Below are positions 42,626-61,954 of a DNA stretch of 64,000 nucleotides, one piece after another. How positions within the stretch are numbered: the stretch's first letter is position 1; each line of letters opens with the position of its first letter. The translations under genes and the position numbers were made by a program. Source of the stretch: Eledone cirrhosa. Taxonomy: Eukaryota. The notes beneath the pieces were generated by a model, which saw nothing but the letters and a program-made list of their open reading frames with translations, searched no databases and had not been told where the DNA came from. The stretch lies in contig OZ024748.1 of the NCBI GenBank assembly GCA_964016885.1, forward strand, positions 8,060,001-8,124,000, in the 5' to 3' direction.

Positions 42626-42672
<47 letters not shown>

Positions 42673-42933
42673 TTTCTTTATTAACCACAAGGGTTTACAT
42701 AAAGTAGACATTAAGGACAGTGCAGAACAATGCAGGACGGTACAAATGGGCATTTCTGCGTGTAAAAAAAACAAAAACAGAGGATGTAACAAAAATAACA
42801 ATGAAAATAACAATGAAAAATTCCCCAATAGGGGGGAGACTTCGGAGGGACATTTGTGGAGAAAGCCCAGTGAAAAGCCACAATGACCCTGACCACCAAG
42901 GCAAGTGCCCTCTCCCAGTTTTCCACCTTTAGT

Positions 42934-45900
42934 TTACAGATATATACTCAGAGTCGGCCCATTCACTCGGGCCATTCTTGCTTCTCTCACCCATCTTTCA
43001 ACAAAATGCTGGGAAGAGAGCACTTCCCTCTCTACTCTGATTTTCCTTTTCAAATGAAATTTGAAAAAGTCAATCAGAGCATCACCGAAGAGGTAAGTGC
43101 TCGTCTTCAGCCCTTTCAAACGTGTCCACCATACTATCTCTTTCGCCATGGCCACCAGACAGATAAAAACTGCCTGCCCTTCCCGGCTAAAGGAGGAGGG
43201 CGGGGCAATCCTCACGATGGCCTCAGATGATAGCTGGATCCGTCCTAAACGCGACAGCAGGTGTTCGACATAAACCCACAAGTCAGCAATTTTCGGACAC
43301 TGGACGAGTGCGTGCAGGACGGTTTCGTCGCCCTGCGCGCATCTCGGACATGCCCGGCTGACGGCACCTCCATGCCTGTAGAGTTTATCCCGAACTGGCA
43401 AGGCTCCTCGGTAGCACTGCCAGGCCAGAGATTTCTGGAAGTTGTCCATAGGCCCCGGCCCGAAAGTTCTTCCGAAGAGATTGGCTAGTTGATTTTCGTC
43501 GACGCCTAGAGTTTCCCCAAGTACGTCGTCGCTCTTCCCCTCCACTAATCCTCTATAGAACGCCGAGGTGGAGTTTCCACCGATCACATTGCCCGATTGG
43601 TCGAGGGCTGTGAGCGCCTGAAGACATTCCAGTCTCCAGGCGCTCCCTCTCGGTCTTCGCTTGACCCAGGACTGCAGCTCCGTCAAGGAAACGAGCTGGG
43701 GAAAAACCCGTCTAGCAAACGGCGACCACACCTGATCACCGTCGAGGAAGAGGTGGAGATGTCGTAGCCTGAGCGCGTGCCTGCGCATCATCAGCCACGG
43801 CATGCCCAGCCCTCCACGTAGCGGGTGTTGACAACAGATGGACCGCCTGACCATCGGAGCACGTCCCTTCCACAAAAAGCGAAAGAGCAAACGCTCCAGC
43901 GCAGTCAGGCGAGGCTTAGGACAAGGTACGACGGTTAGGCGGTAGCAGATGACAGACGCGATGTACGCGTTAGCCACCTCCGCTCGACCTTTCAGGGATA
44001 GCTTCCTCTCCGCCCATTTCTGGGTGAGAGAAGCCACCCTGCTCGTCACCTCGTCCCAGTTTTTGTCCGTCTGGAGGTCCGGACCGAACCAGACCCCTAG
44101 CAATTTAACCGGTCCGTCCGTCCAGCGCCCGACGACGCTGTTGGACGGCATGGACCTGCCTCTCCAGGTGCCGAGCTGCAGGCCCACTGACTTTTCCTGG
44201 TTGATTATTGCTCCTGTCACCGCTTCGTATTCTCTTAGTGTAGTGCCGATCGCCTCGATGTGTTTGGCGTTCGACACCACTACGGTGACATCGTCCGCAT
44301 ATGCTGACACGGATCTTCCGCATCCTAGTTCGCGCGGGACTCCCCTCAACGTCTCCAGTTTGTGCAGTAATGGCTCGAGAGTCAATACGTACAAGAGGGA
44401 CGAGAGGGGACATCCTTGGCGGACCGAGCGCATGATGTTGAACGGTTCCGACAGGTGACCGTTCACTCTCACCACAGAGCAGATGTCGCTGTGCATGGCA
44501 GCGATCCAGCCTCTGAAGACGGGCCCAAAGCCAGCCGCCCTCAGGACTGCCGCTAGGTAACGATGGTCGACCCTATCGAAAGCTTTCGACTGATCTAAAT
44601 TGATCAAGGACCCACCCGTGCCAGGTTCCCTAGCTACCCTCTCTACGATGTATCGCATGAGGTGGAGGTTGTCGTGGATGGATCTGTCGGGAATGGCGCA
44701 TGTCTGCGCCTCTCCCACCAGACCACCAACGACAAGCGCCAACCTCTTTGCTAGCACCTTGGCCAAAATCTTAAACTCTGTGTTTAGCAGAGTTATGGGC
44801 CGGAAATTGTCTATGTTATCCCCCTTGTTCGGATCCTTTCTCAGCAGTGCCACCGCTCCTCGGCTCACAGAACTGGGAATTCTCCCGTTCTGTTGCCAGT
44901 TGCAGTAGACGTCCGCCAAGAGGCCTCCGAACAAGTCTGGCATCTGTACGTAAAGTTCATAGGGCAGACCATCCAAACCAGGCGATTTACCCCTTGTGCA
45001 GCCAGTCATTGCCTCCCTTACTTCAGCGGCTGTTATCGGCTTTTCGCAACACCTCGCCTCAGTGGCCGAGAGCCGCGGCAGTCCGTCGAGGTAGACACTA
45101 AAGTCCATCCCTCTACCCGGCCCCCCGCTGCCCCCGAACAGCTGAGCGAAGTGTCGCTGAAAAGCTTCACACATTTGCCCGGGATCGAGTAGCATGCGCC
45201 CGTCGTGGTCCACCAAAGACCGGATCGTGGCTTTGTTGCCACGACGCGCCTCCGCCACTCGGGCCCATTGAACGGCTTTCGTCCCCTCGTGTCTGAGAGC
45301 ACGCACCCTAGCTCTGACAACGCAGCCTTCGTGCTTTGCATTGAAGAATTGGTCAAGGGCCAATTTCGCCGCAAGCACGTCGGTCGCAATGCCTTTGCTA
45401 AGCGCCTCGTCTAATTTTCTAACTAGTTCTCCCTCTGCTCTATTTTTCTCTATTGCTAAAGCCTTACTAAACCTAATCGATTCTATTCTAATCGCTCTTT
45501 TCAGAGCAAACCACCACTTGTTGTTGACGATGGCCCCCGTCAACGCCCGCTTAACTAGTTCGCTAATCCGGTCTCTGTAGGCCTTGCGCGCTGGTAAGGA
45601 CGCGTTTAGCTTCCAGTAGCCGGGTCCTCGTCTATGAAGCCTATCTAAGTCAAGCACACAGATCACGAATTTGTGGTCCGTGTAGCTGACTATCTTGAAT
45701 TGTGGACAGCCTATGCTAGACCTATCTATTTCCCTACAAAATACTCTATCTAGATATGATCTGGATGACCCTATGCGGTTTGTCCAAGTCCACATTGGCA
45801 CATTCGGGAAATCCAATCGGTACCTGTCAGACAGTTCAAAACGCCTGAGCAGGTTGGTGAGGCTCTTGCACCCTCCACCCCTATCCGCTAATCCCACACA

Positions 45901-46353
45901 GTCCCAGCGTGCATCTAAGATCCCGTTCCAGTCGCCCACTAACACTAAAGAGCGCGACGTTCCAAGAAAGGTCTCCAGACGCCGGAAGAAATCAGGCCGC
46001 CCTGCTCCTGTCGGGGCATAGACGGCCACTAGCTTGAAAGCTTGCCCGTCTCCGCTGGTCACGTCCAGCACCACCAGCTTACCCTCTGGGTCCAGGAAGA
46101 TGGCCCGTATGGCGAGATCCAAACCTCTCCGAAAAAGCACAGCAACTCCTCCACCCGATCCAGGACGGCTGGGAGATGCGTACACATCGTAGCCGCCGAA
46201 GATCGGTGCGAAGGCCCGTGCTTCGGAGATTCTGGTCTCGCTGATGGCCACTACATCTATGTTTAGTGACCTGAGGTCGTTGAGCAGGTGACCCTGCTTC
46301 CATGACGACCCCAAGCCACGCGCATTTATGCTGCCTATTCTGAGTGAGGTCAT
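42934..46353 (-). CDS. ORF2, 1139 aa: APE-type endonuclease, reverse transcriptase and C-terminal zinc finger (Tx1-like)
   Basis: EN motifs SINARGL, AISET, VYAP, GDWN, YLDR, TDH. RT motifs KSPGLDG, NFRPITLLN, LDQSKAFDRVDH, VRQGCPLS, YADD. C-terminal CPRC-x8-H-x4-C. GPGYWKLNASL and GGLG..P are typical of L1/Tx1. Confidence 0.97.
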   Translation of the reverse strand: MTSLRIGSINARGLGSSWKQGHLLNDLRSLNIDVVAISETRISEARAFAPIFGGYDVYASPSRPGSGGGVAVLFRRGLDLAIRAIFLDPEGKLVVLDVTSGDGQAFKLVAVYAPTGAGRPDFFRRLETFLGTSRSLVLVGDWNGILDARWDCVGLADRGGGCKSLTNLLRRFELSDRYRLDFPNVPMWTWTNRIGSSRSYLDRVFCREIDRSSIGCPQFKIVSYTDHKFVICVLDLDRLHRRGPGYWKLNASLPARKAYRDRISELVKRALTGAIVNNKWWFALKRAIRIESIRFSKALAIEKNRAEGELVRKLDEALSKGIATDVLAAKLALDQFFNAKHEGCVVRARVRALRHEGTKAVQWARVAEARRGNKATIRSLVDHDGRMLLDPGQMCEAFQRHFAQLFGGSGGPGRGMDFSVYLDGLPRLSATEARCCEKPITAAEVREAMTGCTRGKSPGLDGLPYELYVQMPDLFGGLLADVYCNWQQNGRIPSSVSRGAVALLRKDPNKGDNIDNFRPITLLNTEFKILAKVLAKRLALVVGGLVGEAQTCAIPDRSIHDNLHLMRYIVERVAREPGTGGSLINLDQSKAFDRVDHRYLAAVLRAAGFGPVFRGWIAAMHSDICSVVRVNGHLSEPFNIMRSVRQGCPLSSLLYVLTLEPLLHKLETLRGVPRELGCGRSVSAYADDVTVVVSNAKHIEAIGTTLREYEAVTGAIINQEKSVGLQLGTWRGRSMPSNSVVGRWTDGPVKLLGVWFGPDLQTDKNWDEVTSRVASLTQKWAERKLSLKGRAEVANAYIASVICYRLTVVPCPKPRLTALERLLFRFLWKGRAPMVRRSICCQHPLRGGLGMPWLMMRRHALRLRHLHLFLDGDQVWSPFARRVFPQLVSLTELQSWVKRRPRGSAWRLECLQALTALDQSGNVIGGNSTSAFYRGLVEGKSDDVLGETLGVDENQLANLFGRTFGPGPMDNFQKSLAWQCYRGALPVRDKLYRHGGAVSRACPRCAQGDETVLHALVQCPKIADLWVYVEHLLSRLGRIQLSSEAIVRIAPPSSFSREGQAVFICLVAMAKEIVWWTRLKGLKTSTYLFGDALIDFFKFHLKRKIRVEREVLSSQHFVERWVREARMARVNGPTLSIYL

Positions 46354-46388
46354 GTTTAAAATAGAGTGGAAAAGATGGGAAAGACCAC

Positions 46389-48488
46389 TTACCGTATTTT
46401 TGGTAGAGGAGGGATGGTTTTTACATCCCTTTTCACTTGATCGTCTGGTGAAGGGACCGTTGAATCGTTCCTTCGGCTGGTCGTCGGCTCTTCTAAGAGA
46501 ATGTCTGAATATACTCTTCGATTAATGGTTCCTCCTAGGTCCCTGAAATCACCAACTGCGTTGGGGAATTTCGTTTTAATGTTTGTGTATTGTTTCTGTG
46601 CTATTTTTAGCAGTCTTATGTTAGTTGGCGTTTTGATTGGTGCTGGTATTATGTAGTCCTGTTGTGAAATGTCTGTGTGTTCAATTATGTAAGTCATTAG
46701 TTTCTTGTTGTGTGTGTTTATTGCCGTGCATTTGTTTTTCTGGGGGTGGGGTGTGGTTCTGCTATTTTCTTGTCGTTGTTGCTGGGTGTGTGTGTTTTGT
46801 TGTTGTGTTTGCGATGTTGGTGCTTGTGGTGGTGGTGTTGAAGGTGTTGTTGGCGGTGGGGTTGTCGCCGGTGGTGATGGTGGTGCTGGTGTGGGTGGTG
46901 ATGGTGTTGGTGGTGTTGCTGCTGTGGGTCTCTTTGCAGTAGACTTTACCCTTTTCTCATTTCTTTCCTCCCTTTTCAAAGGCGACGATGCGCTGCTTCT
47001 GCGTTTGTGCCTTCTTGAGACCTTTTGCCATCCCTCTCCCACCTCACACTCCATGTCTGATTCTGTAAGGTCGGGGAGGGGTACCAGCTCCACTCTTTCA
47101 CTTGTTGTTGTTGGTGATGTTTGCACTGGAGTCTCTGTTGCAGCTGCATTTGGTATTGCTGTTGTTGTTGTTAATATTTCCACTGCTGCTGCTGTCTTTG
47201 ATTTCCGTGGAGTGGGTATGGGTGCCACGGACCTATCGTTCCTGGTTGCCGCTTGTCCTGTTGCTGGTAGCCGTGGAACCGGATTCGGGAGGAGGGGGGT
47301 TTTCTCCTTTCTCAGGGTCTTCTCGTTGCAGAAGGCCCTGAGGTGAGTCTTCGATCCACAGCGAAAGCATTTCGGGCGTTTGCCCTCAACACTTATGGGC
47401 AGTTGAGTGCCGTTATCGAAGTCTATCACATCCGGGATAGCTTCGATGCACTCCTGGTTGGTTTGGATTAGCATCTCAATGGAGGAGCCGACCCAATCTT
47501 CTCTTACTTTTTTCTGTACTTGCAGTACAGTTGTTTTGTCCTCGATTCCGACGAGGACAGACGCGGCCAGCCAAGAAGGGGTCATTCCGGGGGGGACGTG
47601 GGTCAGTTTGACCCTCACAATTTTTTGCCCGCAGTAGGAGGGCACCAACACCATTTCCTCGCTCCTTAGGGTCACTACTGATTGGGCCTTTGCCTCCTGG
47701 GGTGTGGCAAAAAGTACGTCTACGGTGGCGTATTTTTTGCCTCGGGTGATGTGCGTTTTCCTCTGCCACACAGACCCCAAGGCTTTTTGTATTTGGGCCT
47801 CTGTGGCTCTTTCCACCCTACGGGATTTTGTACTTACTGTACGGTACGTGACCGTACAGTGCTCTTGGGTTTCGAAAAAATTTTTCGCTGCCTTGCAGAT
47901 TGCTCGGTGTCCGTTCTTTGTCACCATCTTCTTCGCTTCCTCTAATTCCTCATTTGTTATGAGGATTGTTTCCAGGTTTTTCGCAATACCTGCAAATGAG
48001 ATTGGTTTTTCTCTGCTGTTGTTGTTGTCGTCAGAGCTGCTGGTACTTTTGTTGTTGCTGCAGGTACTACGACTACTGCCTCCGCCGCTGTTGCTGTGGT
48101 TGTTGTTGGTGTTGCTGCTGCTAATGCTGTTGTTGTTTATGCTGCTGGTGATGCTGTTGCGGCTGCTACTGTTGTTTTCATTGTCACTGTTGCTGTTGTT
48201 ATTACGGCTGCTACTGCTATTATTCCTGACGTCAGACGAATGAACTGGGTTTTCGTATTTCCCGCACACCTGTTTCGTCGCTGTCGTCGTCGTCGTGGAG
48301 AAACCTTGCACGCTTTGCACGAGACTTTTCTTTTCTTTCGTCGCTTGCGAAAGAGAAGGTAGGGAGAGAGACACATTTAAAGAAGGGAGGGAGAGAGACA
48401 ATCTTCTCTCTCCTGTAGTGATGATTGAGGAAGAAGAAGACGGAATGAGTGGGAGTGACGTATGAAATTTTTTTTTTTTGGTAGCCAT
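46389..48488 (-). CDS. ORF1, gag-like nucleic-acid-binding protein (699 aa from the ATG of MATKKKK)
   Basis: CCHC knuckle CFRCGSKTHLRAFC (C-x2-C-x4-H-x4-C). N/S-rich and P/T/Q-rich low-complexity tracts. Ends 35 nt upstream of ORF2. The track start at 48521 is TTG; the first ATG is at 48488. Confidence 0.92.
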   Translation of the reverse strand: MATKKKKFHTSLPLIPSSSSSIITTGERRLSLSLPSLNVSLSLPSLSQATKEKKSLVQSVQGFSTTTTTATKQVCGKYENPVHSSDVRNNSSSSRNNNSNSDNENNSSSRNSITSSINNNSISSSNTNNNHSNSGGGSSRSTCSNNKSTSSSDDNNNSREKPISFAGIAKNLETILITNEELEEAKKMVTKNGHRAICKAAKNFFETQEHCTVTYRTVSTKSRRVERATEAQIQKALGSVWQRKTHITRGKKYATVDVLFATPQEAKAQSVVTLRSEEMVLVPSYCGQKIVRVKLTHVPPGMTPSWLAASVLVGIEDKTTVLQVQKKVREDWVGSSIEMLIQTNQECIEAIPDVIDFDNGTQLPISVEGKRPKCFRCGSKTHLRAFCNEKTLRKEKTPLLPNPVPRLPATGQAATRNDRSVAPIPTPRKSKTAAAVEILTTTTAIPNAAATETPVQTSPTTTSERVELVPLPDLTESDMECEVGEGWQKVSRRHKRRSSASSPLKREERNEKRVKSTAKRPTAATPPTPSPPTPAPPSPPATTPPPTTPSTPPPQAPTSQTQQQNTHTQQQRQENSRTTPHPQKNKCTAINTHNKKLMTYIIEHTDISQQDYIIPAPIKTPTNIRLLKIAQKQYTNIKTKFPNAVGDFRDLGGTINRRVYSDILLEEPTTSRRNDSTVPSPDDQVKRDVKTIPPLPKIR

Positions 48489-48722
48489 GTTGTTTTGTTT
48501 AAAATGAAATTTTGGGTACAAAACCCCAATAACTGGCTATTTAACCCCGAAGGGCCAAATAACGGACAGAAAGACCCCTCTCACGAGGAGGAGGGTGTCT
48601 TTATCAACAATTTGGTTCAAGTTTTAAACAATTTACAATTGTTTTAACGGTTAAAAATTACTATACCTTACAGAGCCGAGCCTCCGTCAACCATGGCATT
48701 CAATAATAATAATAATAATAAT

Positions 48723-49111
48723 AGACAAGAATGTATCTATAAAAACATTTGAAAAATTGAGCAAGTATAAGGACCTGGAGATAGAAATTGGAAAAATGTG
48801 GAAATTGAGAACTAAAACAATACCAGTGGTTGTAGGCGCTCTGGGAATGATACCTAAGGGGTCTAATGATTACTTATCGCAAATCCCAGGAAACCCGCGT
48901 ATAGGAGAAATACAAAAGATAGTACTAATGGGAACTGCCCATATACTAAGGAAGATTCTGTCAATATAAGTACATCACAAGTCTAAACACTAAGGATGCA
49001 TGTGTGAATATGTGTGTTCTTTCTTGAACATGGCGGACCTTGTTGTCTCTTGAGGTCACTGGTTGTGACTTGGTGATAACTCGTATGAACATAAAGCAAG
49101 ATAAATGCAAC

Positions 49112-49112
<1 letters not shown>
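48723..49112 (+). mobile_element. 5'-truncated 3' fragment of an R4/Dong-type (restriction-like endonuclease) LINE, spacer 1
   Basis: Encodes DKNVSIKTFEKLSKYKDLEIEIGKMWKLRTKTIPVVVGALG...GTAHILRKILSI* (stop at 48969), the K..KY.DL / P.VVGALG RLE C-terminus. A 3' UTR and a (TAA)n tail follow. Confidence 0.85.
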
Positions 49113-49167
<55 letters not shown>

Positions 49168-49427
49168 TTTCTTTATTAACCACAAGGGTTTACATAAAGT
49201 AGACATTAAGGACAGTGCAGGACAATGCAGGACGGTACAAATGGGCATTTCTGCGTGTAAAAAAACAAAAACAGAGGATGTAACAAAAATAACAATGAAA
49301 ATAACAATGAAAAATTCCCCAATAGGGGGGAGACTTCGGAGGGACATTTGTGGAGAAAGCCCAGTAAAAAGCCACAATGACCCTGACCACCAAGGCAAGT
49401 GCCCTCTCCCAGTTTTCCACCTTTAGT

Positions 49428-52400
49428 TTACAGATATATACTCAGAGTCGGCCCATTCACACGGGCCATTCTTGCTTCTCTCACCCATCTTTCAACAAAA
49501 TGCTGGGAAGAGAGCACTTCCTTCTCTACTCTGATTTTCCTTTTCAAATGAAATTTGAAAAAGTCAATCAGAGCATCACCGAAGAGGTAAGTGCTCGTCT
49601 TCAGCCCTTTCAAACGTGTCCACCATACTATCTCTTTCGCCATGGCCACCAGACAGATAAAAACTGCCTGCCCTTCCCGGCTAAAGGAGGAGGGCGGGGC
49701 AATCCTCACGATAGACTCAGATGATAGCTGGATCCGTCCTAAACGCGACAGCAGGTGTTCGACATAAACCCACAAGTCAGCAATTTTCGGACACTGGACG
49801 AGTGCGTGCAGGACGGTTTCGTCGCCCTGCGCGCATCTCGGACATGCCCGGCTGACGGCACCTCCATGCCTGTAGAGTTTATCCCGAACTGGCAAGGCTC
49901 CTCGGTAGCACTGCCAGGCCAGAGATTTCTGGAAGTTGTCCATAGGCCCCGGCCCGAAAGTTCTTCCGAAGAGATTGGCTAGTTGATTTTCGTCGACGCC
50001 TAGAGTTTCCCCAAGTACGTCGTCGCTCTTCCCCTCCACTAATCCTCTATAGAACGCCGAGGTGGAGTTTCCACCGATCACATTGCCCGATTGGTCGAGG
50101 GCTGTGAGCGCCTGAAGACATTCCAGTCTCCAGGCGCTCCCTCTCGGTCTTCGCTTGACCCAGGACTGCAGCTCCGTCAAGGAAACGAGCTGGGGAAAAA
50201 CGCGTCTAGCAAACGGCGACCACACCTGATCACCGTCGAGGAAGAGGTGGAGATGTCGTAGCCTGAGCGCGTGCCTGCGCATCATCAGCCACGGCATGCC
50301 CAGCCCTCCACGTAGCGGGTGTTGACAACAGATGGACCGCCTGACCATCGGAGCGCGTCCCTTCCACAAAAAGCGAAAGAGCAAACGCTCCAGCGCAGTC
50401 AGGCGAGGCTTAGGACAAGGTACGACGGTTAGGCGGTAGCAGATGACAGACGCGATGTACGCGTTAGCCACCTCCGCTCGACCTTTCAGGGATAGCTTCC
50501 TCTCCGCCCATTTCTGGGTGAGAGAAGCCACCCTGCTCGTCACCTCGTCCCAGTTTTTGTCCGTCTGGAGGTCCGGACCGAACCAGACCCCTAGCAATTT
50601 AACCGGTCCGTCCGTCCAGCGCCCGACGACGCTGTTGGACGGCATGGACCTGCCTCTCCAGGTGCCGAGCTGCAGGCCCACTGACTTTTCCTGGTTGATC
50701 ATTGCTCCTGTCACCGCTTCGTATTCTCTTAGTGTAGTGCCGATCGCCTCGATGTGTTTGGCGTTCGACACCACTACGGTGACATCGTCCGCATATGCTG
50801 ACACGGATCTTCCGCATCCTAGTTCGCGCGGGACTCCCCTCAACGTCTCCAGTTTGTGCAGTAATGGCTCGAGAGTCAATACGTACAAGAGGGACGAGAG
50901 GGGACATCCTTGGCGGACCGAGCGCATGATGTTGAACGGTTCCGACAGGTGACCGTTCACTCTCACCACAGAGCAGATGTCGCTGTGCATGGCAGCGATC
51001 CAGCCTCTGAAGACGGGCCCAAAGCCAGCCGCCCTCAGGACTGCCGCTAGGTAACGATGGTCGACCCTATCGAAAGCTTTCGACTGATCTAAATTGATCA
51101 AGGACCCACCCGTGCCAGGTTCCCTAGCTACCCTCTCTACGATGTATCGCATGAGGTGGAGGTTGTCGTGGATGGATCTGTCGGGAATGGCGCATGTCTG
51201 CGCCTCTCCCACCAGACCACCAACGACAAGCGCCAACCTCTTTGCTAGCACCTTGGCCAAAATCTTAAACTCTGTGTTTAGCAGAGTTATGGGCCGGAAA
51301 TTTTCTATGTTATCCCCCTTGTTCGGATCCTTTCTCAGCAGTGCCACCGCTCCTCGGCTCACAGAACTGGGAATTCTCCCGTTCTGTTGCCAGTTGCAGT
51401 AGACGTCCGCCAAGAGGCCTCCGAACAAGTCTGGCATCTGTACGTAAAGTTCATAGGGCAGACCATCCAAACCAGGCGATTTACCCCTTGTGCAGCCAGT
51501 CATTGCCTCCCGTACTTCAGCGGCTGTTATCGGCTTTTCGCAACACCTCGCCTCAGTGGCCGAGAGCCGCGGCAGTCCGTCGAGGTAGACACTAAAGTCC
51601 ATCCCTCTACCCGGCCCCCCGCTGCCCCCGAACAGCTGAGCGAAGTGTCGCTGAAAAGCTTCACACATTTGCCCGGGATCGAGTAGCATGCGCCCGTCGT
51701 GGTCCACCAAAGACCGGATCGTGGCTTTGTTGCCACGACGCGCCTCCGCCACTCGGGCCCATTGAACGGCTTTCGTCCCCTCGTGTCTGAGAGCACGCAC
51801 CCTAGCTCTGACAACGCAGCCTTCGTGCTTTGCATTGAAGAATTGGTCAAGGGCCAATTTCGCCGCAAGCACGTCGGTCGCAATGCCTTTGCTAAGCGCC
51901 TCGTCTAATTTTCTAACTAGTTCTCCCTCTGCTCTATTTTTCTCTATTGCTAAAGCCTTACTAAACCTAATCGATTCTATTCTAATCGCTCTTTTCAGAG
52001 CAAACCACCACTTGTTGTTGACGATGGCCCCCGTCAACGCCCGCTTAACTAGTTCGATAATCCGGTCTCTGTAGGCCTTGCGCGCTGGTAAGGACGCGTT
52101 TAGCTTCCAGTAGCCGGGTCCTCGTCTATGAAGCTTATCTAAGTCAAGCACACAGGTCACGAATTTGTGGTCCGTGTAGCTGACTATCTTGAATTGTGGA
52201 CAGCCTATGCTAGACCTATCTATTTCCCTACAAAATACTCTATCTAGATATGATCTGGATGACCCTATGCGGTTTGTCCAAGTCCACATTGGCACATTCG
52301 GGAAATCCAATCGGTACCTGTCAGACAGTTCAAAACGCCTGAGCAGGTTGGTGAGGCTCTTGCACCCTCCACCCCTATCCGCTAATCCCACACAGTCCCA

Positions 52401-52847
52401 GCGTGCATCTAAGATCCCGTTCCAGTCGCCCACTAACACTAAAGAGCGGGACGTTCCAAGAAAGGTCTCCAGACGCCGGAAGAAATCAGGCCGCCCTGCT
52501 CCTGTCGGGGCATAGACGGCCACTAGCCTGAAAGCTTGCCCGTCTCCGCTGGTCACGTCCAGCACCACCAGCTTACCCTCTGGGTCCAGGAAGATGGCCC
52601 GTATGGCGAGATCCAAACCTCTCCGAAAAAGCACAGCAACTCCTCCACCCGATCCAGGACGGCTGGGAGATGCGTACACATCGTAGCCGCCGAAGATCGG
52701 TGCGAAGGCCCGTGCTTCGGAGATTCTGGTCTCGCTGATGGCCACTACATCTATGTTTAGTGACCTGAGGTCGTTGAGCAGGTGACCCTGCTTCCATGAC
52801 GACCCCAAGCCACGCGCATTTATGCTGCCTATTCTGAGTGAGGTCAT
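49428..52847 (-). CDS. ORF2 (APE-EN/RT/zinc finger), 1139 aa, copy 2
   Basis: Same motifs as copy 1; intact. Confidence 0.97.
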   Translation of the reverse strand: MTSLRIGSINARGLGSSWKQGHLLNDLRSLNIDVVAISETRISEARAFAPIFGGYDVYASPSRPGSGGGVAVLFRRGLDLAIRAIFLDPEGKLVVLDVTSGDGQAFRLVAVYAPTGAGRPDFFRRLETFLGTSRSLVLVGDWNGILDARWDCVGLADRGGGCKSLTNLLRRFELSDRYRLDFPNVPMWTWTNRIGSSRSYLDRVFCREIDRSSIGCPQFKIVSYTDHKFVTCVLDLDKLHRRGPGYWKLNASLPARKAYRDRIIELVKRALTGAIVNNKWWFALKRAIRIESIRFSKALAIEKNRAEGELVRKLDEALSKGIATDVLAAKLALDQFFNAKHEGCVVRARVRALRHEGTKAVQWARVAEARRGNKATIRSLVDHDGRMLLDPGQMCEAFQRHFAQLFGGSGGPGRGMDFSVYLDGLPRLSATEARCCEKPITAAEVREAMTGCTRGKSPGLDGLPYELYVQMPDLFGGLLADVYCNWQQNGRIPSSVSRGAVALLRKDPNKGDNIENFRPITLLNTEFKILAKVLAKRLALVVGGLVGEAQTCAIPDRSIHDNLHLMRYIVERVAREPGTGGSLINLDQSKAFDRVDHRYLAAVLRAAGFGPVFRGWIAAMHSDICSVVRVNGHLSEPFNIMRSVRQGCPLSSLLYVLTLEPLLHKLETLRGVPRELGCGRSVSAYADDVTVVVSNAKHIEAIGTTLREYEAVTGAMINQEKSVGLQLGTWRGRSMPSNSVVGRWTDGPVKLLGVWFGPDLQTDKNWDEVTSRVASLTQKWAERKLSLKGRAEVANAYIASVICYRLTVVPCPKPRLTALERLLFRFLWKGRAPMVRRSICCQHPLRGGLGMPWLMMRRHALRLRHLHLFLDGDQVWSPFARRVFPQLVSLTELQSWVKRRPRGSAWRLECLQALTALDQSGNVIGGNSTSAFYRGLVEGKSDDVLGETLGVDENQLANLFGRTFGPGPMDNFQKSLAWQCYRGALPVRDKLYRHGGAVSRACPRCAQGDETVLHALVQCPKIADLWVYVEHLLSRLGRIQLSSESIVRIAPPSSFSREGQAVFICLVAMAKEIVWWTRLKGLKTSTYLFGDALIDFFKFHLKRKIRVEKEVLSSQHFVERWVREARMARVNGPTLSIYL

Positions 52848-52881
52848 GTTTAAATAGAGTGGAAAAGATGGGAAAGACCAC

Positions 52882-54981
52882 TTACCGTACTTTTGGTAGA
52901 GGAGGGATGGTTTTTACATCCCTTTTCACTTGATCGTCTGGTGAAGGGACCGTTGAATCGTCCCTTCGGCTGGTCGTCGGCTCTTCTAAGAGAATGTCTG
53001 AATATACTCTTCGATTGATGGTTCCTCCTAGGTCCCTGAAATCACCAACTGCGTTGGGGAATTTCGTTTTAATGTTTGTGTATTGTTTCTGTGCTATTTT
53101 TAGCAGTCTTATGTTAGTTGGCGTTTTGATTGGTGCTGGTATTATGTAGTCCTGTTGTGAAATGTCTGTGTGTTCAATTATGTAAGTCATTAGTTTCTTG
53201 TTGTGTGTGTTTATTGCCGTGCATTTGTTTTTCTGGGGGTGGGGTGTGGTTCTGCTATTTTCTTGTCGTTGTTGCTGGGTGTGTGTGTTTTGTTGTTGTG
53301 TTTGCGATGTTGGTGCTTGTGGTGGTGGTGTTGAAGGTGTTGTTGGCGGTGGGGTTGTCGCCGGTGGTGATGGTGGTGCTGGTGTGGGTGGTGATGGTGT
53401 TGGTGGTGTTGCTGCTGTGGGTCTCTTTGCAGTAGACTTTACCCTTTTCTCATTTCTTTCCTCCCTTTTCAAAGGCGACGATGCGCTGCTTCTGCGTTTG
53501 TGCCTTCTTGCGACCTTTTGCCATCCCTCTCCCACCTCACACTCCATGTCTGATTCTGTAAGGTCGGGGAGGGGTACCAGCTCCACTCTTTCACTTGTTG
53601 TTGTTGGTGATGTTTGCACTGGAGTCTCTGTTGCAGCTGCATTTGGTATTGCTGTTGTTGTTGTTAATATTTCCACTGCTGCTGCTGTTTTTGATTTCCG
53701 TGGCGTGGGTATGGGTGCCACGGACCTATCGTTCCTGGTTGCCGCTTGTCCTGTTGCTGGTAGCCGTGGAGCCGGATTCGGAAGGAGGGGGGTTTTCTCC
53801 TTTCTCAGGGTCTTCTCGTTGCAGAAGGCCCTGAGGTGAGTCTTCGATCCACAGCGAAAGCATTTCGGGCGTTTGCCCTCAACACTTATGGGCAGTTGAG
53901 TGCCGTTATCGAAGTCTATCACATCCGGGATAGCTTCGATGCACTCCTGGTTGGTTTGGATTAGCATCTCAATGGAGGAGCCGACCCAATCTTCTCTTAC
54001 TTTTTTCTGTACTTGCAGTACAGTTGTTTTGTCCTCGATTCCGACGAGGACAGACGCGGCCAGCCAAGAAGGGGTCATTCCGGGGGGGACGTGGGTCAGT
54101 TTGACCCTCACAATTTTTTGCCCGCAGTAGGAGGGCACCAACACCATTTCCTCGCTCCTTAGGGTCACTACTGATTGGGCCTTTGCCTCCTGGGGTGTGG
54201 CAAAAAGTACGTCTACGGTGGCGTATTTTTTGCCTCGGGTGATGTGCGTTTTCCTCTGCCACACAGACCCCAAGGCTTTTTGTATTTGGGCCTCTGTGGC
54301 TCTTTCCACCCTACGGGATTTTGTACTTACTGTACGGTACGTGACCGTACAGTGCTCTTGGGTTTCGAAAAAATTTTTCGCTGCCTTGCAGATTGCTCGG
54401 TGTCCGTTCTTTGTCACCATCTTCTTCGCTTCCTCTAATTCCTCATTTGTTATGAGGATTGTTTCCAGGTTTTTCGCAATACCTGCAAATGAGATTGGTT
54501 TTTCTCTGCTGTTGTTGTTGTCGTCAGAGCTGCTGGTACTTTTGTTGTTGCTGCAGGTACTACGACTACTGCCTCCGCCGCTGTTGCTGTGGTTGTTGTT
54601 GGTGTTGCTGCTGCTAATGCTGTTGTTGTTTATGCTGCTGGTGATGCTGTTGCGGCTGCTACTGTTGTTTTCATTGTCACTGTTGCTGTTGTTATTACGG
54701 CTGCTACTGCTATTATTCCTGACGTCAGACGAATGAACTGGGTTTTCGTATTTCCCGCACACCTGTTTCGTCGCTGTCGTCGTCGTCGTGGAGAAACCTT
54801 GCACGCTTTGCACGAGACTTTTCTTTTCTTTCGTCGCTTGCGAAAGAGAAGGTAGGGAGAGAGACACATTTAAAGAAGGGAGGGAGAGAGACAATCTTCT
54901 CTCTCCTGTAGTGATGATTGAGGAAGAAGAAGACGGAATGAGTGGGAGTGACGTATGAAATTTTTTTTTTTTGGTAGCCAT
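52882..54981 (-). CDS. ORF1 (CCHC), copy 2
   Basis: Same as copy 1; ATG at 54981. Confidence 0.92.
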   Translation of the reverse strand: MATKKKKFHTSLPLIPSSSSSIITTGERRLSLSLPSLNVSLSLPSLSQATKEKKSLVQSVQGFSTTTTTATKQVCGKYENPVHSSDVRNNSSSSRNNNSNSDNENNSSSRNSITSSINNNSISSSNTNNNHSNSGGGSSRSTCSNNKSTSSSDDNNNSREKPISFAGIAKNLETILITNEELEEAKKMVTKNGHRAICKAAKNFFETQEHCTVTYRTVSTKSRRVERATEAQIQKALGSVWQRKTHITRGKKYATVDVLFATPQEAKAQSVVTLRSEEMVLVPSYCGQKIVRVKLTHVPPGMTPSWLAASVLVGIEDKTTVLQVQKKVREDWVGSSIEMLIQTNQECIEAIPDVIDFDNGTQLPISVEGKRPKCFRCGSKTHLRAFCNEKTLRKEKTPLLPNPAPRLPATGQAATRNDRSVAPIPTPRKSKTAAAVEILTTTTAIPNAAATETPVQTSPTTTSERVELVPLPDLTESDMECEVGEGWQKVARRHKRRSSASSPLKREERNEKRVKSTAKRPTAATPPTPSPPTPAPPSPPATTPPPTTPSTPPPQAPTSQTQQQNTHTQQQRQENSRTTPHPQKNKCTAINTHNKKLMTYIIEHTDISQQDYIIPAPIKTPTNIRLLKIAQKQYTNIKTKFPNAVGDFRDLGGTINRRVYSDILLEEPTTSRRDDSTVPSPDDQVKRDVKTIPPLPKVR

Positions 54982-55215
54982 GTTGTTTTGTTTAAAATGA
55001 AATTTTGGGTACAAAACCCCAATAACTGGCTATTTAACCCCGAAGGGCCAAATAACGGACAGAAAGACCCCTCTCACGAGGAGGAGGGTGTCTTTATCAA
55101 CAATTTGGTTCAAGTTTTAAACAATTTACAATTGTTTTAACGGTTAAAAATTACTATACCTTACAGAGCCGAGCCTCCGTCAACCATGGCATTCAATAAT
55201 AATAATAATAATAAT

Positions 55216-55604
55216 AGACAAGAATGTATCTATAAAAACATTTGAAAAATTGAGCAAGTATAAGGACCTGGAGATAGAAATTGGAAAAATGTGGAAATTG
55301 AGAACTAAAACAATACCAGTGGTTGTAGGCGCTCTGGGAATGATACCTAAGGGGTCTAATGATTACTTATCGCAAATCCCAGGAAACCCGCGTATAGGAG
55401 AAATACAAAAGATAGTACTAATGGGAACTGCCCATATACTAAGGAAGATTCTGTCAATATAAGTACATCACAAGTCTAAACACTAAGGATGCATGTGTGA
55501 ATATGTGTGTTCTTTCTTGAACATGGCGGACCTTGTTGTCTCTTGAGGTCACTGGTTGTGACTTGGTGATAACTCGTATGAACATAAAGCAAGATAAATG
55601 CAAC

Positions 55605-55605
<1 letters not shown>
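55216..55605 (+). mobile_element. R4/Dong-type LINE 3' fragment, spacer 2
   Basis: Identical by eye to 48723-49112, including the 5' truncation point (offset 6493 bp). Confidence 0.85.
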
Positions 55606-55651
<46 letters not shown>

Positions 55652-55911
55652 TTTCTTTATTAACCACAAGGGTTTACATAAAGTAGACATTAAGGACAGT
55701 GCAGGACAATGCAGGACGGTACAAATGGGCATTTCTGCGTGTAAAAAAACAAAAACAGAGGATGTAACAAAAATAACAATGAAAATAACAATGAAAAATT
55801 CCCCAATAGGGGGGAGACTTCGGAGGGACATTTGTGGAGAAAGCCCAGTAAAAAGCCACAATGACCCTGACCACCAAGGCAAGTGCCCTCTCCCAGTTTT
55901 CCACCTTTAGT

Positions 55912-58900
55912 TTACAGATATATACTCAGAGTCGGCCCATTCACTCGGGCCATTCTTGCTTCTCTCACCCATCTTTCAACAAAATGCTGGGAAGAGAGCA
56001 CTTCCTTCTCTACTCTGATTTTCCTTTTCAAATGAAATTTGAAAAAGTCAATCAGAGCATCACCGAAGAGGTAAGTGCTCGTCTTCAGCCCTTTCAAACG
56101 TGTCCACCATACTATCTCTTTCGCCATGGCCACCAGACAGATAAAAACTGCCTGCCCTTCCCGGCTAAAGGAGGAGGGCGGGGCAATCCTCACGATAGAC
56201 TCAGATGATAGCTGGATCCGTCCTAAACGCGACAGCAGGTGTTCGACATAAACCCACAAGTCAGCAATTTTCGGACACTGGACGAGTGCGTGCAGGACGG
56301 TTTCGTCGCCCTGCGCGCATCTCGGACATGCCCGGCTGACGGCACCTCCATGCCTGTAGAGTTTATCCCGAACTGGCAAGGCTCCTCGGTAGCACTGCCA
56401 GGCCAGAGATTTCTGGAAGTTGTCCATAGGCCCTGGCCCGAAAGTTCTTCCGAAGAGATTGGCTAGTTGATTTTCGTCGACGCCTAGAGTTTCCCCAAGT
56501 ACGTCGTCGCTCTTCCCCTCCACTAATCCTCTATAGAACGCCGAGGTGGAGTTTCCACCGATCACATTGCTCGATTGGTCGAGGGCTGTGAGCGCCTGAA
56601 GACATTCCAGTCTCCAGGCGCTCCCTCTCGGTCTTCGCTTGACCCAGGACTGCAGCTCCGTCAAGGAAACGAGCTGGGGAAAAACGCGTCTAGCAAACGG
56701 CGACCACACCTGATCACCGTCGAGGAAGAGGTGGAGATGTCGTAGCCTGAGCGCGTGCCTGCGCATCATCAGCCACGGCATGCCCAGCCCTCCACGTAGC
56801 GGGTGTTGACAACAGATGGACCGCCTGACCATCGGAGCACGTCCCTTCCACAAAAAGCGAAAGAGCAAACGCTCCAGCGCAGTCAGGCGAGGCTTAGGAC
56901 AAGGTACGACGGTTAGGCGGTAGCAGATGACAGACGCGATGTACGCGTTAGCCACCTCCGCTCGACCTTTCAGGGATAGCTTCCTCTCCGCCCATTTCTG
57001 GGTGAGAGAAGCCACCCTGCTCGTCACCTCGTCCCAGTTTTTGTCCGTCTGGAGGTTCGGACCGAACCAGACCCCTAGCAATTTAACCGGTCCGTCCGTC
57101 CAGCGCCCGACGACGCTGTTGGACGGCATGGACCTGCCTCTCCAGGTGCCGAGCTGCAGGCCCACTGACTTTTCCTGGTTGATCATTGCTCCTGTCACCG
57201 CTTCGTATTCTCTTAGTGTAGTGCCGATCGCCTCGATGTGTTTGGCGTTCGACACCACTACGGTGACATCGTCCGCATATGCTGACACGGATCTTCCGCA
57301 TCCTAGTTCGCGCGGGACTCCCCTCAACGTCTCCAGTTTGTGCAGTAATGGCTCGAGAGTCAATACGTACAAGAGGGACGAGAGGGGACATCCTTGGCGG
57401 ACCGAGCGCATGATGTTGAACGGTTCCGACAGGTGACCGTTCACTCTCACCACAGAGCAGATGTCGCTGTGCATGGCAGCGATCCAGCCTCTGAAGACGG
57501 GCCCAAAGCCAGCCGCCCTCAGGACTGCCGCTAGGTAACGATGGTCGACCCTATCGAAAGCTTTCGACTGATCTAAATTGATCAAGGACCCACCCGTGCC
57601 AGGTTCCCTAGCTACCCTCTCTACGATGTATCGCATGAGGTGGAGGTTGTCGTGGATGGATCTGTCGGGAATGGCGCATGTCTGCGCCTCTCCCACCAGA
57701 CCACCAACGACAAGCGCCAACCTCTTTGCTAGCACCTTGGCCAAAATCTTAAACTCTGTGTTTAGCAGAGTTATGGGCCGGAAATTGTCTATGTTATCCC
57801 CCTTGTTCGGATCCTTTCTCAGCAGTGCCACCGCTCCTCGGCTCACAGAACTGGGAATTCTCCCGTTCTGTTGCCAGTTGCAGTAGACGTCCGCCAAGAG
57901 GCCTCCGAACAAGTCTGGCATCTGTACGTAAAGTTCATAGGGCAGACCATCCAAACCAGGCGATTTACCCCTTGTGCAGCCAGTCATTGCCTCCCGTACT
58001 TCAGCGGCTGTTATCGGCTTTTCGCAACACCTCGCCTCAGTGGCCGAGAGCCGCGGCAGCCCGTCGAGGTAGACACTAAAGTCCATCCCTCTACCCGGCC
58101 CCCCGCTGCCCCCGAACAGCTGAGCGAAGTGTCGCTGAAAAGCTTCACACATTTGCCCGGGATCGAGTAGCATGCGCCCGTCGTGGTCCACCAAAGACCG
58201 GATCGTGGCTTTGTTGCCACGACGCGCCTCCGCCACTCGGGCCCATTGAACGGCTTTCGTCCCCTCGTGTCTGAGAGCACGCACCCTAGCTCTGACAACG
58301 CAGCCTTCGTGCTTTGCATTGAAGAATTGGTCAAGGGCCAATTTCGCCGCAAGCACGTCGGTCGCAATGCCTTTGCTAAGCGCCTCGTCTAATTTTCTAA
58401 CTAGTTCTCCCTCTGCTCTATTTTTCTCTATTGCTAAAGCCTTACTAAACCTAATCGATTCTATTCTAATCGCTCTTTTCAGAGCAAACCACCACTTGTT
58501 GTTGACGATGGCCCCCGTCAACGCCCGCTTAACTAGTTCGCTAATCCGGTCTCTGTAGGCCTTGCGTGCTGGTAAGGACGCGTTTAGCTTCCAGTAGCCG
58601 GGTCCTCGTCTATGAAGCCTATCTAAGTCAAGCACACAGATCACGAATTTGTGGTCCGTGTAGCTGACTATCTTGAATTGTGGACAGCCTATGCTAGACC
58701 TATCTATTTCCCTACAAAATACTCTATCTAGATATGATCTGGATGACCCTATGCGGTTTGTCCAAGTCCACATTGGCACATTCGGGAAATCCAATCGGTA
58801 CCTGTCAGACAGTTCAAAACGCCTGAGCAGGTTGGTGAGGCTCTTGCACCCTCCACCCCTATCCGCTAATCCCACACAGTCCCAGCGTGCATCTAAGATC

Positions 58901-59331
58901 CCGTTCCAGTCGCCCACTAACACTAAAGAGCGGGACGTTCCAAGAAAGGTCTCCAGACGCCGGAAGAAATCAGGCCGCCCTGCTCCTGTCGGGGCATAGA
59001 CGGCCACTAGCCTGAAAGCTTGCCCGTCTCCGCTGGTCACGTCCAGCACCACCAGCTTACCCTCTGGGTCCAGGAAGATGGCCCGTATGGCGAGATCCAA
59101 ACCTCTCCGAAAAAGCACAGCAACTCCTCCACCGGATCCAGGACGGCTGGGAGATGCGTACACATCGAAGCCGCCGAAGATCGGTGCGAAGGCCCGTGCT
59201 TCGGAGATTCTGGTCTCGCTGATGGCCACTACATCTATGTTTAGTGACCTGAGGTCGTTGAGCAGGTGACCCTGCTTCCATGACGACCCCAAGCCACGCG
59301 CATTTATGCTGCCTATTCTGAGTGAGGTCAT
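55912..59331 (-). CDS. ORF2 (APE-EN/RT/zinc finger), 1139 aa, copy 3
   Basis: Same motifs as copy 1; intact. Confidence 0.97.
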   Translation of the reverse strand: MTSLRIGSINARGLGSSWKQGHLLNDLRSLNIDVVAISETRISEARAFAPIFGGFDVYASPSRPGSGGGVAVLFRRGLDLAIRAIFLDPEGKLVVLDVTSGDGQAFRLVAVYAPTGAGRPDFFRRLETFLGTSRSLVLVGDWNGILDARWDCVGLADRGGGCKSLTNLLRRFELSDRYRLDFPNVPMWTWTNRIGSSRSYLDRVFCREIDRSSIGCPQFKIVSYTDHKFVICVLDLDRLHRRGPGYWKLNASLPARKAYRDRISELVKRALTGAIVNNKWWFALKRAIRIESIRFSKALAIEKNRAEGELVRKLDEALSKGIATDVLAAKLALDQFFNAKHEGCVVRARVRALRHEGTKAVQWARVAEARRGNKATIRSLVDHDGRMLLDPGQMCEAFQRHFAQLFGGSGGPGRGMDFSVYLDGLPRLSATEARCCEKPITAAEVREAMTGCTRGKSPGLDGLPYELYVQMPDLFGGLLADVYCNWQQNGRIPSSVSRGAVALLRKDPNKGDNIDNFRPITLLNTEFKILAKVLAKRLALVVGGLVGEAQTCAIPDRSIHDNLHLMRYIVERVAREPGTGGSLINLDQSKAFDRVDHRYLAAVLRAAGFGPVFRGWIAAMHSDICSVVRVNGHLSEPFNIMRSVRQGCPLSSLLYVLTLEPLLHKLETLRGVPRELGCGRSVSAYADDVTVVVSNAKHIEAIGTTLREYEAVTGAMINQEKSVGLQLGTWRGRSMPSNSVVGRWTDGPVKLLGVWFGPNLQTDKNWDEVTSRVASLTQKWAERKLSLKGRAEVANAYIASVICYRLTVVPCPKPRLTALERLLFRFLWKGRAPMVRRSICCQHPLRGGLGMPWLMMRRHALRLRHLHLFLDGDQVWSPFARRVFPQLVSLTELQSWVKRRPRGSAWRLECLQALTALDQSSNVIGGNSTSAFYRGLVEGKSDDVLGETLGVDENQLANLFGRTFGPGPMDNFQKSLAWQCYRGALPVRDKLYRHGGAVSRACPRCAQGDETVLHALVQCPKIADLWVYVEHLLSRLGRIQLSSESIVRIAPPSSFSREGQAVFICLVAMAKEIVWWTRLKGLKTSTYLFGDALIDFFKFHLKRKIRVEKEVLSSQHFVERWVREARMARVNGPTLSIYL

Positions 59332-59366
59332 GTTTAAAATAGAGTGGAAAAGATGGGAAAGACCAC

Positions 59367-61466: not shown

Positions 61467-61706
61467 GTTTTTTTGTTTAAAATGAAATTTTGGGTACAAA
61501 ACCCCAATAACTGGTTATTTAACCCCGAAGGGCCAAATAACGGACAGAAAGACCCCTCTCACGAGGAGGAGGGTGTCTTTATCAACAATTTGGTTCAAGT
61601 TTTAAACAATTTACAATTGTTTTAACGGTTAAAAATTACTATACCTTACAGAGCCGAGCCTCCGTCAACCATGGCATTCAATAATAATAATAATAATAAT
61701 AACGAT

Positions 61707-61930: not shown

Positions 61931-61954
61931 AATAATAATAATGATGATGATGAT

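Follow-up and report, generated by a model that had tools for sequence, protein, structure and literature searches.

Microsatellite-targeting elements of the Tx1 clade include Kibi in (TC)n, Koshi in (TTC)n and the crocodilian Tx1 elements in (TTCC)n/(TTTC)n (PMC4494074, PMC3812793), and the main text of PMC4494074 treats a Tx1 family as microsatellite-specific when more than 20% of its copies are flanked by the target repeat. (ATT)n is not among the Tx1 targets in the passages of these papers drawn on here; the supplements of PMC4494074 or Repbase could hold one. Dong, an RLE-type LINE of the R4 clade, targets (TAA)n, with DongBg described from a snail in the main text of PMC3812793, and Dong-R4 elements are abundant in Octopus (PMC13282606, PMC8967140). 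Two LINE families that use one simple repeat are known from Bombyx, in which SART1 and TRAS1 both target the telomeric repeats (PMC1919474).

The window, which is the whole 64-kb stretch of octopod DNA analyzed here, contains one AAT microsatellite that holds three intact Tx1-like LINEs (T1, T2 and T3) and two identical antisense fragments of an RLE-type LINE (D1 and D2), with (AAT)n at every junction. The three elements are 99.3-99.6% identical in pairs, and ORF1 (699 aa) and ORF2 (1139 aa) are open in each of them. Table 1 shows that with these full-length elements the nest extends past the interval 48702..55649 given in the earlier note. An unfiltered self-BLAST returned a shifted match of 12.6 kb at 99.4% identity amid swamping microsatellite matches. 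An older relative, T0, lies next to T3; 133 of its 197 bases aligned with the Tx1-like element are identical, and the alignment score of 133 exceeds the maximum of 98 from 500 shuffles.

Table 1. Members of the nest and their junctions, in window coordinates
Feature	Position	Strand	Remarks
(AAT)15	42626..42670	.	(ATT)n tail of T1 and leftover target
T1, full-length Tx1-like LINE	42671..48701	-	ORF1 48488-46389 (699 aa), ORF2 46353-42934 (1139 aa, APE-RT-zinc finger)
Predicted 4-bp stem, CTTGT loop	42683..42695	-	Immediately before AATAAA-GAAATC-(ATT)n at the T1 3' end; motif also in T0 and the SINE
Near-identical tract, copy 1	47290..49949	.	T1 5' end, (AAT)7, D1, (AAT)n, T2 3' end
(AAT)7	48702..48722	.	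Head to head; common to T1 5' end and D1 5' breakpoint
D1, 390-bp 5'-truncated RLE-LINE (Dong/R4-like) fragment	48723..49112	+	Last 81 codons of endonuclease domain (48724-48969 including stop) and 3' UTR
AT+(AAT)17	49113..49165	.	Tail to tail; common to D1 and T2
T2, full-length Tx1-like LINE, mosaic	49166..55194	-	ORF1 54981-52882, ORF2 52847-49428
Near-identical tract, copy 2	53783..56433	.	T2 5' end, (AAT)7, D2, (AAT)n, T3 3' end
(AAT)7	55195..55215	.	Between T2 5' end and D2
D2, identical to D1	55216..55605	+	
AT+(AAT)14	55606..55649	.	Tail to tail; common to D2 and T3
T3, full-length Tx1-like LINE, most divergent copy	55650..61679	-	ORF1 61466-59367, ORF2 59331-55912
(AAT)7, then AA	61680..61700	.	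T3 5' junction; doubles as T0 tail
T0, 5'-truncated 3' UTR of older relative of the Tx1-like element	61701..61930	-	133 of 197 aligned bases identical
SINE copy, (ATC)n(ATT)n tail received T0	61931..62119	-	Outermost nest member; 5' limit approximate

The ORF2 product matches the Pfam domains PF03372, PF00078 and PF13966, giving an N-terminal APE endonuclease, an RT and a C-terminal zinc finger, which is the layout of the Tx1 clade. It scored 327 bits against Xenopus Tx1L versus 179 bits against L1 ORF2p. A 23-bp target duplication attributed to Tx1L found no confirmation in the literature consulted and is not used here. In an RT tree of 29 rows with no L1 row (28 of the 29 chosen database proteins were kept, P0197 having dropped out), whose deep forks do not separate Tx1 from L1, the element fell into a group of invertebrate sequences outside the one that contains Tx1L (88/92, not starred). 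Pfam did not directly find an RNA-binding or CCHC domain in ORF1; a CCHC motif is present at residue 374, and Atlas matches of 0.90-0.93 to zf-CCHC and ZCCHC3 RNA-binding clusters provide a lead. Like Kibi, Koshi and the crocodilian Tx1 elements, this element has two ORFs, an APE-RT-zinc-finger ORF2, Tx1L as a named relative and full-length copies with repeat units on either side. It differs from them in its repeat, (ATT)n, its octopod host and its invertebrate RT group, and what is known of its specificity comes from one locus.

The two spacer fragments are identical over their 390 bp, and both break off after (AAT)7-A. The earlier note had described this common truncation point and the tail-to-tail arrangement of each fragment with the next Tx1 copy through a common (AAT)n, and had concluded that the fragment was copied within a unit. 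All of this holds: because the breakpoint and the junctions are identical, independent insertion of D1 and D2 was taken to be excluded. The identity of D1 and D2 alone would be unsurprising (P 0.10-0.19 at element-to-element rates).

The fragment codes for the final 81 residues of an RLE-LINE ORF, corresponding to residues 1140-1220 of the relative P0024 (72% identical). Its coding part begins right after the endonuclease LLID motif and is followed by the 3' UTR. The 81-aa fragment had no Pfam match; it aligned to the C-terminal end of 1200-aa single-ORF RT proteins with the motifs RPDIV...LLID...K..KY. In one ORF, these full-length relatives carry a C-terminal PD-(D/E)xK-type endonuclease after the RT and a CCHC finger, as RLE-type LINEs do, and their best solved relatives are R2 proteins. 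D belongs to the RLE-LINE class. The narrower Dong/R4 label is one that we presume from the motifs and from the abundance of Dong-R4 in octopus: no named Dong/R4 protein was among the best 120 of 1725 matches to a full-length relative of D, and no named R4, Dong or Rex6 reference was among the 120 listed matches to the D fragment, which itself has no RT. D resembles Dong in being a C-terminal RLE piece from a family whose single ORF combines RT, zinc finger and RLE, and in being bounded on both sides by (TAA)n as read on the sense strand, and differs in that only 390 bp are present and the clade label comes without a named protein match. The spacer is a passenger with no evident function.

The alignment of T1, T2 and T3 contains 6031 columns, of which 53 are variable: 18 sites are unique to T1, 8 to T2 and 27 to T3 (8 versus 27, p 0.002). 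T2 differs from T1 at 26 sites and from T3 at 35. The sites unique to T1/T2/T3 number 6/1/0 in columns 1-785, 12/7/21 in columns 786-4619 and 0/0/6 in columns 4620-6031, so that T2 is a mosaic, with 3' 785 bp that are T3-like (one difference) and 5' 1412 bp that are identical to T1. The T1-unique sites lie 3' of the T3-unique sites (Mann-Whitney p 0.0017; max-chi permutation p 0.009; label permutation with fixed positions p 0.016), and the reverse polarity gave no gain in fit. Unequal crossing-over should turn the middle repeat into a polar mixture of the outer two, and T2 shows this polarity (p 0.002-0.016): its ends fit, while its middle leaves 20 of the 53 sites unaccounted for. When the sequence was compared with itself at a shift, no tract with one difference or fewer exceeded 2655 bp, and the tract of that length includes D (uniform null, p 0.0006; this null takes no account of variation in rate and scores each T2-unique site twice). 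The two copies of this tract, each about 2.65 kb, centred on the spacer and reaching into both neighbours, differ by one substitution and three AAT units.

The differences between the elements are under purifying selection. The pN/pS ratio is 0.22 for ORF1 and 0.35 for ORF2, and 25 of the 47 coding differences are synonymous versus 29% expected with transition bias (p 0.0004). Because pN/pS is low and synonymous changes are in excess, most of the differences should pre-date insertion, and the outer elements T1 and T3 are therefore likely separate insertions. The coding differences between T1 and T2 (10 synonymous and 12 non-synonymous; p 0.02 without and 0.07 with transition bias) also lean synonymous, hinting at a third source behind them; among T2-unique sites the lean is not significant (3 of 7 synonymous, p 0.2-0.3).

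On balance, we think it probable that the second fragment and the middle element T2 are products of an unequal homologous crossover between two Tx1-like copies that had inserted separately and flanked one fragment. This recombination model, one of two offered earlier, agrees with the polarity of the differences across T1, T2 and T3. We infer both the crossover and the order of insertion. The (ATT)n tail of a SINE would first have received T0, and the regenerated run would then have taken T3 and T1, young Tx1-like elements from different active lineages, on the minus strand. One 5'-truncated Dong-like copy would have entered the same run in the opposite orientation, and these three may have arrived in any order. 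The outcome, T1-D-T3, would have been two direct repeats of 6 kb, some 99.3-99.5% identical, separated by the 390-bp spacer. A misaligned exchange of T3 with T1 would then have produced T1-D-T2-D-T3, in which T2 has a T3-like 3' end and a T1-like 5' end, the crossover having fallen at some point from column 551 to column 3854 of the alignment (about 49715-53017 in the window). The exchange would lie inside the element and not in the AAT run, because T2 equals T3 at the six T1-unique sites in columns 56-551; across columns 551-3854 the breakpoint profile is flat.

One crossover accounts for 33 of the 53 sites. The remaining 20 may come from later mutation, from allelic difference of the recombining chromosomes or from conversion by a third family member. 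All nine T1/T2 differences right of column 3485 fall in columns 3688-4619, where T3 also diverges most, and this clustering looks more like family polymorphism than random later mutation, although the contrast falls short of significance (Fisher p 0.14). The AIC was 711.8 for a single crossover, 719.4 for three independent lineages and 728.3 for T2 and T3 as sisters, values that are rough in that the breakpoint was counted as one parameter. Non-allelic homologous recombination occurs between direct-repeat transposon copies, and recombination alone puts two copied units side by side with no added assumption. The locus resembles its products in the duplicated spacer, the hybrid middle repeat of the predicted polarity and the preservation of all ORFs, and differs in that the middle of the hybrid is not cleanly two-part and an additional cause is needed for 20 of the 53 sites.

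That additional cause would be supplied if three Tx1-like elements had inserted independently, with the spacer at first at one junction only, and gene conversion or gap repair over some 2.6 kb had then copied a 5' end, the spacer and a 3' end to the other junction. Conversion belongs to the same class of mechanism as the crossover, homologous exchange at the DNA level, with a different history. It would agree with the presence of all three classes of unique sites in columns 786-4619, with the confinement of identity to the ends beside D and with the synonymous lean of the T1/T2 differences. However, it requires three insertions and a conversion adding about 410 bp of non-homologous sequence; sites unique to T2 are few and without a significant synonymous lean, and the best left break in an over-parameterised two-breakpoint fit is column 3485, not 785. 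We therefore regard conversion as unlikely, if the strongest of the alternatives. A false duplication in the assembly, in which two T1-D-T3 haplotypes were joined out of register within the Tx1 repeat, would be expected to give exactly the same polarity, and allelic differences would supply the 20 residual sites; the only two indels among the elements, both in homopolymers, also point this way. The six open ORFs and the resolved long minisatellite arrays nearby suggest accurate long reads, however, and T1 and T3 are nowhere identical over more than a few hundred bases, which is little for a false overlap and makes an assembly error more doubtful still.

The other model in the earlier note was 3' transduction, in which a Tx1 transcript continues through its tail and the antisense piece, is primed at the (AUU)7 beyond, and is inserted beside its source or comes from a composite master. 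T2-D1 and T3-D2 are indeed arranged as element plus 3' flank, the (AUU)7 end for primer pairing is present, and T2 and T3 are near-identical over their last 785 bp. Transduction nevertheless fits poorly, and we consider it improbable: T2 should be the sister of T3 throughout, yet it is closer to T1 and the sister model has the worst AIC, and the identity runs 1412 bp into the 5' end of the next element, beyond a transduced unit. Neither AATAAA nor ATTAAA occurs on the antisense strand of D, insertion beside the source would be unexpected for a target as common as this microsatellite (13 AAT/ATT runs of at least four units in the 64-kb window), and a conserved 3' stem-loop would, as may be inferred from the relevant part of PMC4176376, mean a stringent-type element priming at its own tail. 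It is very improbable that D is a fixed-length non-autonomous Dong derivative inserted twice independently. The common 5' end would be accounted for, and Octopus vulgaris has numerous young Dong-R4 families, with 1129 recent insertions (PMC13282606 Table 1); but D begins mid-ORF with no visible promoter head, the 64-kb window has no third copy of it, and the identity tract in the flanking elements and the identical (AAT)7-A junction are left unexplained.

All three independent 5' junctions (T0, T3 and T1/T2), which belong to one nested locus, fall on (ATT)4-7, versus about 0.35% of background positions, and we infer from them that the Tx1-like element may prefer an (ATT)n target. The (TAA)n on the sense strand of D, with (AAT)7 ahead of the fragment's 5' breakpoint and (AAT)14-17 behind its 3' end, represents one independent insertion in runs common with the Tx1-like neighbours. 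It had been proposed that APE and RLE LINEs share one target in opposite orientations. Their joint use of (AAT/ATT)n is seen at the locus, while specificity of the Tx1-like endonuclease is a suggestion drawn from three junctions at one locus. SART1 and TRAS1 insert in opposite orientations, and they resemble the present case as two LINE families on one simple repeat that is regenerated at both ends. They are both R1-clade APE elements, whereas the present pair combines an APE with an RLE family and occupies an interspersed microsatellite.

The last 22 nt of the Tx1-like element match the 3' end of a SINE that is abundant in the window and has the same (ATT)n tail. When SINE copies were identified by body sequence and the comparison was anchored at the tail, the mean match was 14.7 of 22, versus a null mean of 5.8 and a null maximum of 11.5 (1954 ATT-preceding 22-mers); the Dong-like 3' end scored 6.1 in the same test. 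The complete 3' end was found in 15 of 19 body-defined copies. A first test by unanchored local alignment had been weak and partly circular, the ends having been picked by the common motif, and in it three other 40-mers of the element scored at least as high as its 3'-most 40-mer. Searches of the window found no tRNA gene and no Rfam family. In the predicted CTTGT-loop stem, 82% of cells are paired, three of the four pairs have double changes, and the covariation was reached by 0 of 500 shuffles, with only three independent lineages contributing. Folding z-scores of -0.8 to +0.4 (T1, T0) give it no support over shuffles, and it is absent from the minimum-energy folds of T0 and the tested SINE.

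Stringent SINE/LINE pairs with a common 3' stem-loop are described for UnaL2/UnaSINE and ZfL2 in parts of PMC4176376 and PMC3747384. The present pair, with its shared 3'-terminal sequence and tail repeat, resembles them in a short common 3' end, a putative stem-loop with variable stem and conserved loop, and a common simple-repeat tail, and differs in that the match is only about 22 nt. Table 1 of PMC3747384 lists no Tx1 partner and no mollusc, and in that survey L1-group LINEs rarely have tails in common with SINEs (3 cases). In PMC4494074 the tie of SINEU to Tx1-Mar comes from common targets and from snRNA heads, and SINEU terminates in poly(A), whereas the link here is a common 3' end and an (ATT)n tail. 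About 11.6% of the Octopus vulgaris genome consists of SINEs (PMC13282606), for which the portions of the literature cited here name no partner LINE. The Tx1-like element is a candidate partner and may mobilise the SINE.

Tentatively, we suggest a wider reading, which we hold as possible rather than probable. The octopod Tx1 lineage would be a LINE of the stringent type with a preference for (ATT)n; it would recognise a 3' hairpin with a CUUGU loop and drive the SINE family of the window, and with it perhaps part of the octopus SINE expansion. This lineage and Dong would use one AAT microsatellite on opposite strands, and each insertion would regenerate the target for both classes, giving self-feeding nests of intact LINEs amplified by recombination. 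The spacer duplication itself, apart from this reading, is probably an ordinary product of recombination, of note mainly as a clean example of target-regenerating LINEs building tandem intact arrays without retrotransposition. The possible ATT preference and SINE partnership weigh more than the duplication, and an intact young Tx1-like element with a SINE 3' end is a directly testable partner candidate for octopus SINEs.

Self-comparison of the window revealed a 12.6-kb shifted match (42626-55216 versus 49121-61701, 99.4%), in agreement with the earlier note, which had correctly described two identical 390-bp fragments (D1 and D2) with the same 5' truncation point and AAT junctions. An AAT run is found at all junctions of the nest (in order along the window, 15, 7, 17, 7, 14, and 7 units), and no third copy of D is present in the 64-kb window. 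The nest extends further than that note gave: to the right of T3 lie T0 (133 of 197 aligned bases with the Tx1-like element; score 133 versus a shuffle maximum of 98, n=500) and a SINE, the (ATC)n(ATT)n tail of which abuts T0. The SINE, T0, T1, T2, and T3 share the minus-strand orientation. For T0 and for T3, the start lies inside the (ATT)n tail of the preceding element, and T1 and T2 start in the repeat run at the spacer 5' end. A compound trinucleotide tract (GGA, GAA, GAT, GTA/GCA, GTG) occupies 42036-42466, 160 bp left of the nest.

Coordinates of the AAT nest and of other repeats in the window
Feature	Position	Strand	Description
T1	42671-48701	-	full-length Tx1-like element
5' run of T1	48702-48723		(ATT)7, 22 nt
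D1	48723-49112	+	390-bp spacer
T2	49166-55194	-	full-length Tx1-like element
5' run of T2	55195-55216		(ATT)7, 22 nt
D2	55216-55605	+	390-bp spacer
T3	55650-61679	-	full-length Tx1-like element
5' run of T3	61680-61702		(ATT)7, 23 nt
T0	61701-61930	-	5'-truncated 3' UTR of older Tx1 relative, between T3 and SINE tail
SINE copy	11418-11589	-	example of the abundant SINE
SINE copy	18144-18334	+	example of the abundant SINE
SINE copy	33569-33754	+	example of the abundant SINE
Minisatellite array	5575-7502		52 bp, 37 copies
Minisatellite array	28509-31108		54 bp, 48 copies, 99% matches
Minisatellite array	38071-38628		43 bp, 13 copies

Each of T1, T2, and T3 contains an open ORF1 (699 aa) with a CCHC knuckle and an open ORF2 (1139 aa) with APE, RT, and zinc finger domains. 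The closest named relative of ORF2 is from Argonauta hians (69%), and ORF2 scored 327 bits with Xenopus Tx1L versus 179 bits with L1 ORF2p. In an RT tree of 29 rows, none of them L1, the element fell in an invertebrate group separate from the Tx1L group; the Tx1-like assignment is well supported but provisional. The similarity of ORF1 to ZCCHC3-type RNA-binding clusters is a lead only. Two ORF1 codons differ in T1, T2, and T3 through adjacent changes (47017-47018, 47277-47278, and the matching T2/T3 sites).

The D fragment codes for the C-terminal 81 residues of a family with one ORF and the order RT-zinc finger-RLE (72% to P0024, a database relative), with its top-scoring match in Octopus bimaculoides; the solved relatives of the family are R2 proteins. 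An octopod is the likely host. None of the matches listed in the searches with D and with the full-length relative was a named Dong or R4 protein, so the Dong/R4 label is putative and draws on characteristic motifs and on Dong-R4 abundance in O. vulgaris. In that species, Dong-R4 greatly outnumbers the other recently active RLE classes, with 1129 recent insertions versus 13 for Hero and 1 for R2 (PMC13282606 Table 1). The window also contains an RT fragment (20796-21202, minus strand; 45-58% to P0024 and P0064) that belongs to the RLE family type of D but is older and frameshifted; its end coincides with a SINE's (ATT)6 tail.

In the 6031-column alignment of T1, T2, and T3 (column 1 at the element 3' end), 53 columns are variable: T1 alone differs at 18, T2 at 8, and T3 at 27. 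The pN/pS between elements is 0.22 for ORF1 and 0.35 for ORF2, and 25 of the 47 coding differences are synonymous (P=0.0004 with transition bias). This synonymous enrichment indicates that most differences arose in active source lineages, and T1 and T3 therefore probably inserted separately. Unequal crossing-over between T1 and T3 around a single D would produce a polar hybrid T2 and a second spacer, and thus predicts both polarity and a duplicated tract. The T1/T2/T3-unique counts were 6/1/0 in columns 1-785 at the element 3' end and 0/0/6 in columns 4620-6031 at the 5' end (rank P=0.0017; max-chi P=0.009; labels shuffled over fixed positions, P=0.016). The duplicated tract, about 2.65 kb, is centred on D and reaches both neighbours, with 1 substitution and 3 AAT units differing (P=0.0006 under a uniform null that is too generous); the D1/D2 identity by itself is weakly informative (P=0.10-0.19). 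Unequal recombination, as the earlier note proposed, fits these two features, but a single crossover, placed anywhere between columns 551 and 3854, covers only 33 of the 53 sites. Of the 53 variable columns, 23 lie in columns 3688-4619, a stretch that corresponds largely to the low-complexity C-terminal region of ORF1. The central puzzle of the duplicated spacer has an ordinary answer: it was quite probably copied by DNA-level homologous exchange, crossover and conversion together.

It was also proposed that the spacer was carried by 3' transduction, for which T2 and T3 are expected to be sisters. However, T2 and T3 differ at 35 sites versus 26 for T1 and T2, the T2-unique sites are fewer than the T3-unique sites (P=0.002), and the T2/T3-sister model had the worst AIC (728, versus 719 for three independent lineages and 712 for a single crossover). 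With a poly(A) signal also absent from the antisense strand of D, transduction is very improbable. An out-of-register join of two haplotypes during assembly would yield the same pattern as a crossover, but the open ORFs and resolved minisatellites make such an artefact unlikely. The T1/T2 differences lean synonymous (10 synonymous to 12 non-synonymous, P=0.02-0.07) and cluster where T3 differs too. A serious alternative is therefore a third donor, or three elements that inserted independently with a conversion tract spanning their junction.

At this one locus, (ATT)4-7 is found at 3 of 3 independent Tx1-like 5' junctions versus about 0.35% of background positions. Dong elements are reported to target TAA repeats, also in a snail (PMC3812793, in which the listing of Dong as APE-type is wrong), and the microsatellite targets reported for Tx1 in PMC4494074 are TC, TTC, TTCC, and TTTC. 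The Tx1-like and Dong-like classes here use the repeat on opposite strands; the idea that APE and RLE classes share a target in opposite orientations holds at this locus, and family-wide specificity is inferred. The 5' runs of T1, T2, and T3 may reflect either a constant stagger of the cut or a leader that the element encodes. A 7-unit run likewise separates two SINE pieces (11397-11417).

The SINE copies, defined by their body, gave 19 matches, of which 15 are complete at the 3' end. In the 22 nt that precede the ATT tail, these copies agree with the 3'-terminal 22 nt of the element (42671-42692, minus strand) at a mean of 14.7 positions (range 12-17), in register and ungapped, versus a mean of 5.8 and a maximum of 11.5 for 1954 other ATT-preceding 22-mers and 6.1 for the D end. 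A CTTGT loop is kept while four flanking pairs co-change among T, T0, and SINE (82% paired); 3 of the 4 pairs have double changes, a covariation reached in 0 of 500 shuffles but drawn from only three independent lineages. The folding energies of this stem were no better than shuffles, and the predicted stem was absent from the best fold in 2 of 3 tested ends having the motif. By inspection, the SINE head carries A- and B-box-like motifs. Of 18 SINE matches, 3 have their 5' junction on a run of at least three ATT units (P=3e-5), which is a bias, not strict targeting. One copy (33552-33771) has an apparent 17-bp target duplication beginning with ATT, and copies at 11202-11589 (minus) and 528-907 (plus) are stacked head to tail, each begun in the prior ATT tail, just as the elements of the Tx1 cluster are nested.

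Neither an (ATT)n-targeting Tx1 nor a partner of octopus SINEs from the Tx1 clade turned up in the literature searched; subscription papers, Repbase, and supplements lay outside the search, so this lack is weak evidence of novelty. From sequence, the Tx1-like element is a candidate partner LINE of the window's abundant SINE, with which it also has the (ATT)n tail in common, although the genome may contain a further LINE clade that carries this tail. The interest of the locus lies mostly in the ATT preference and this candidate SINE partnership.
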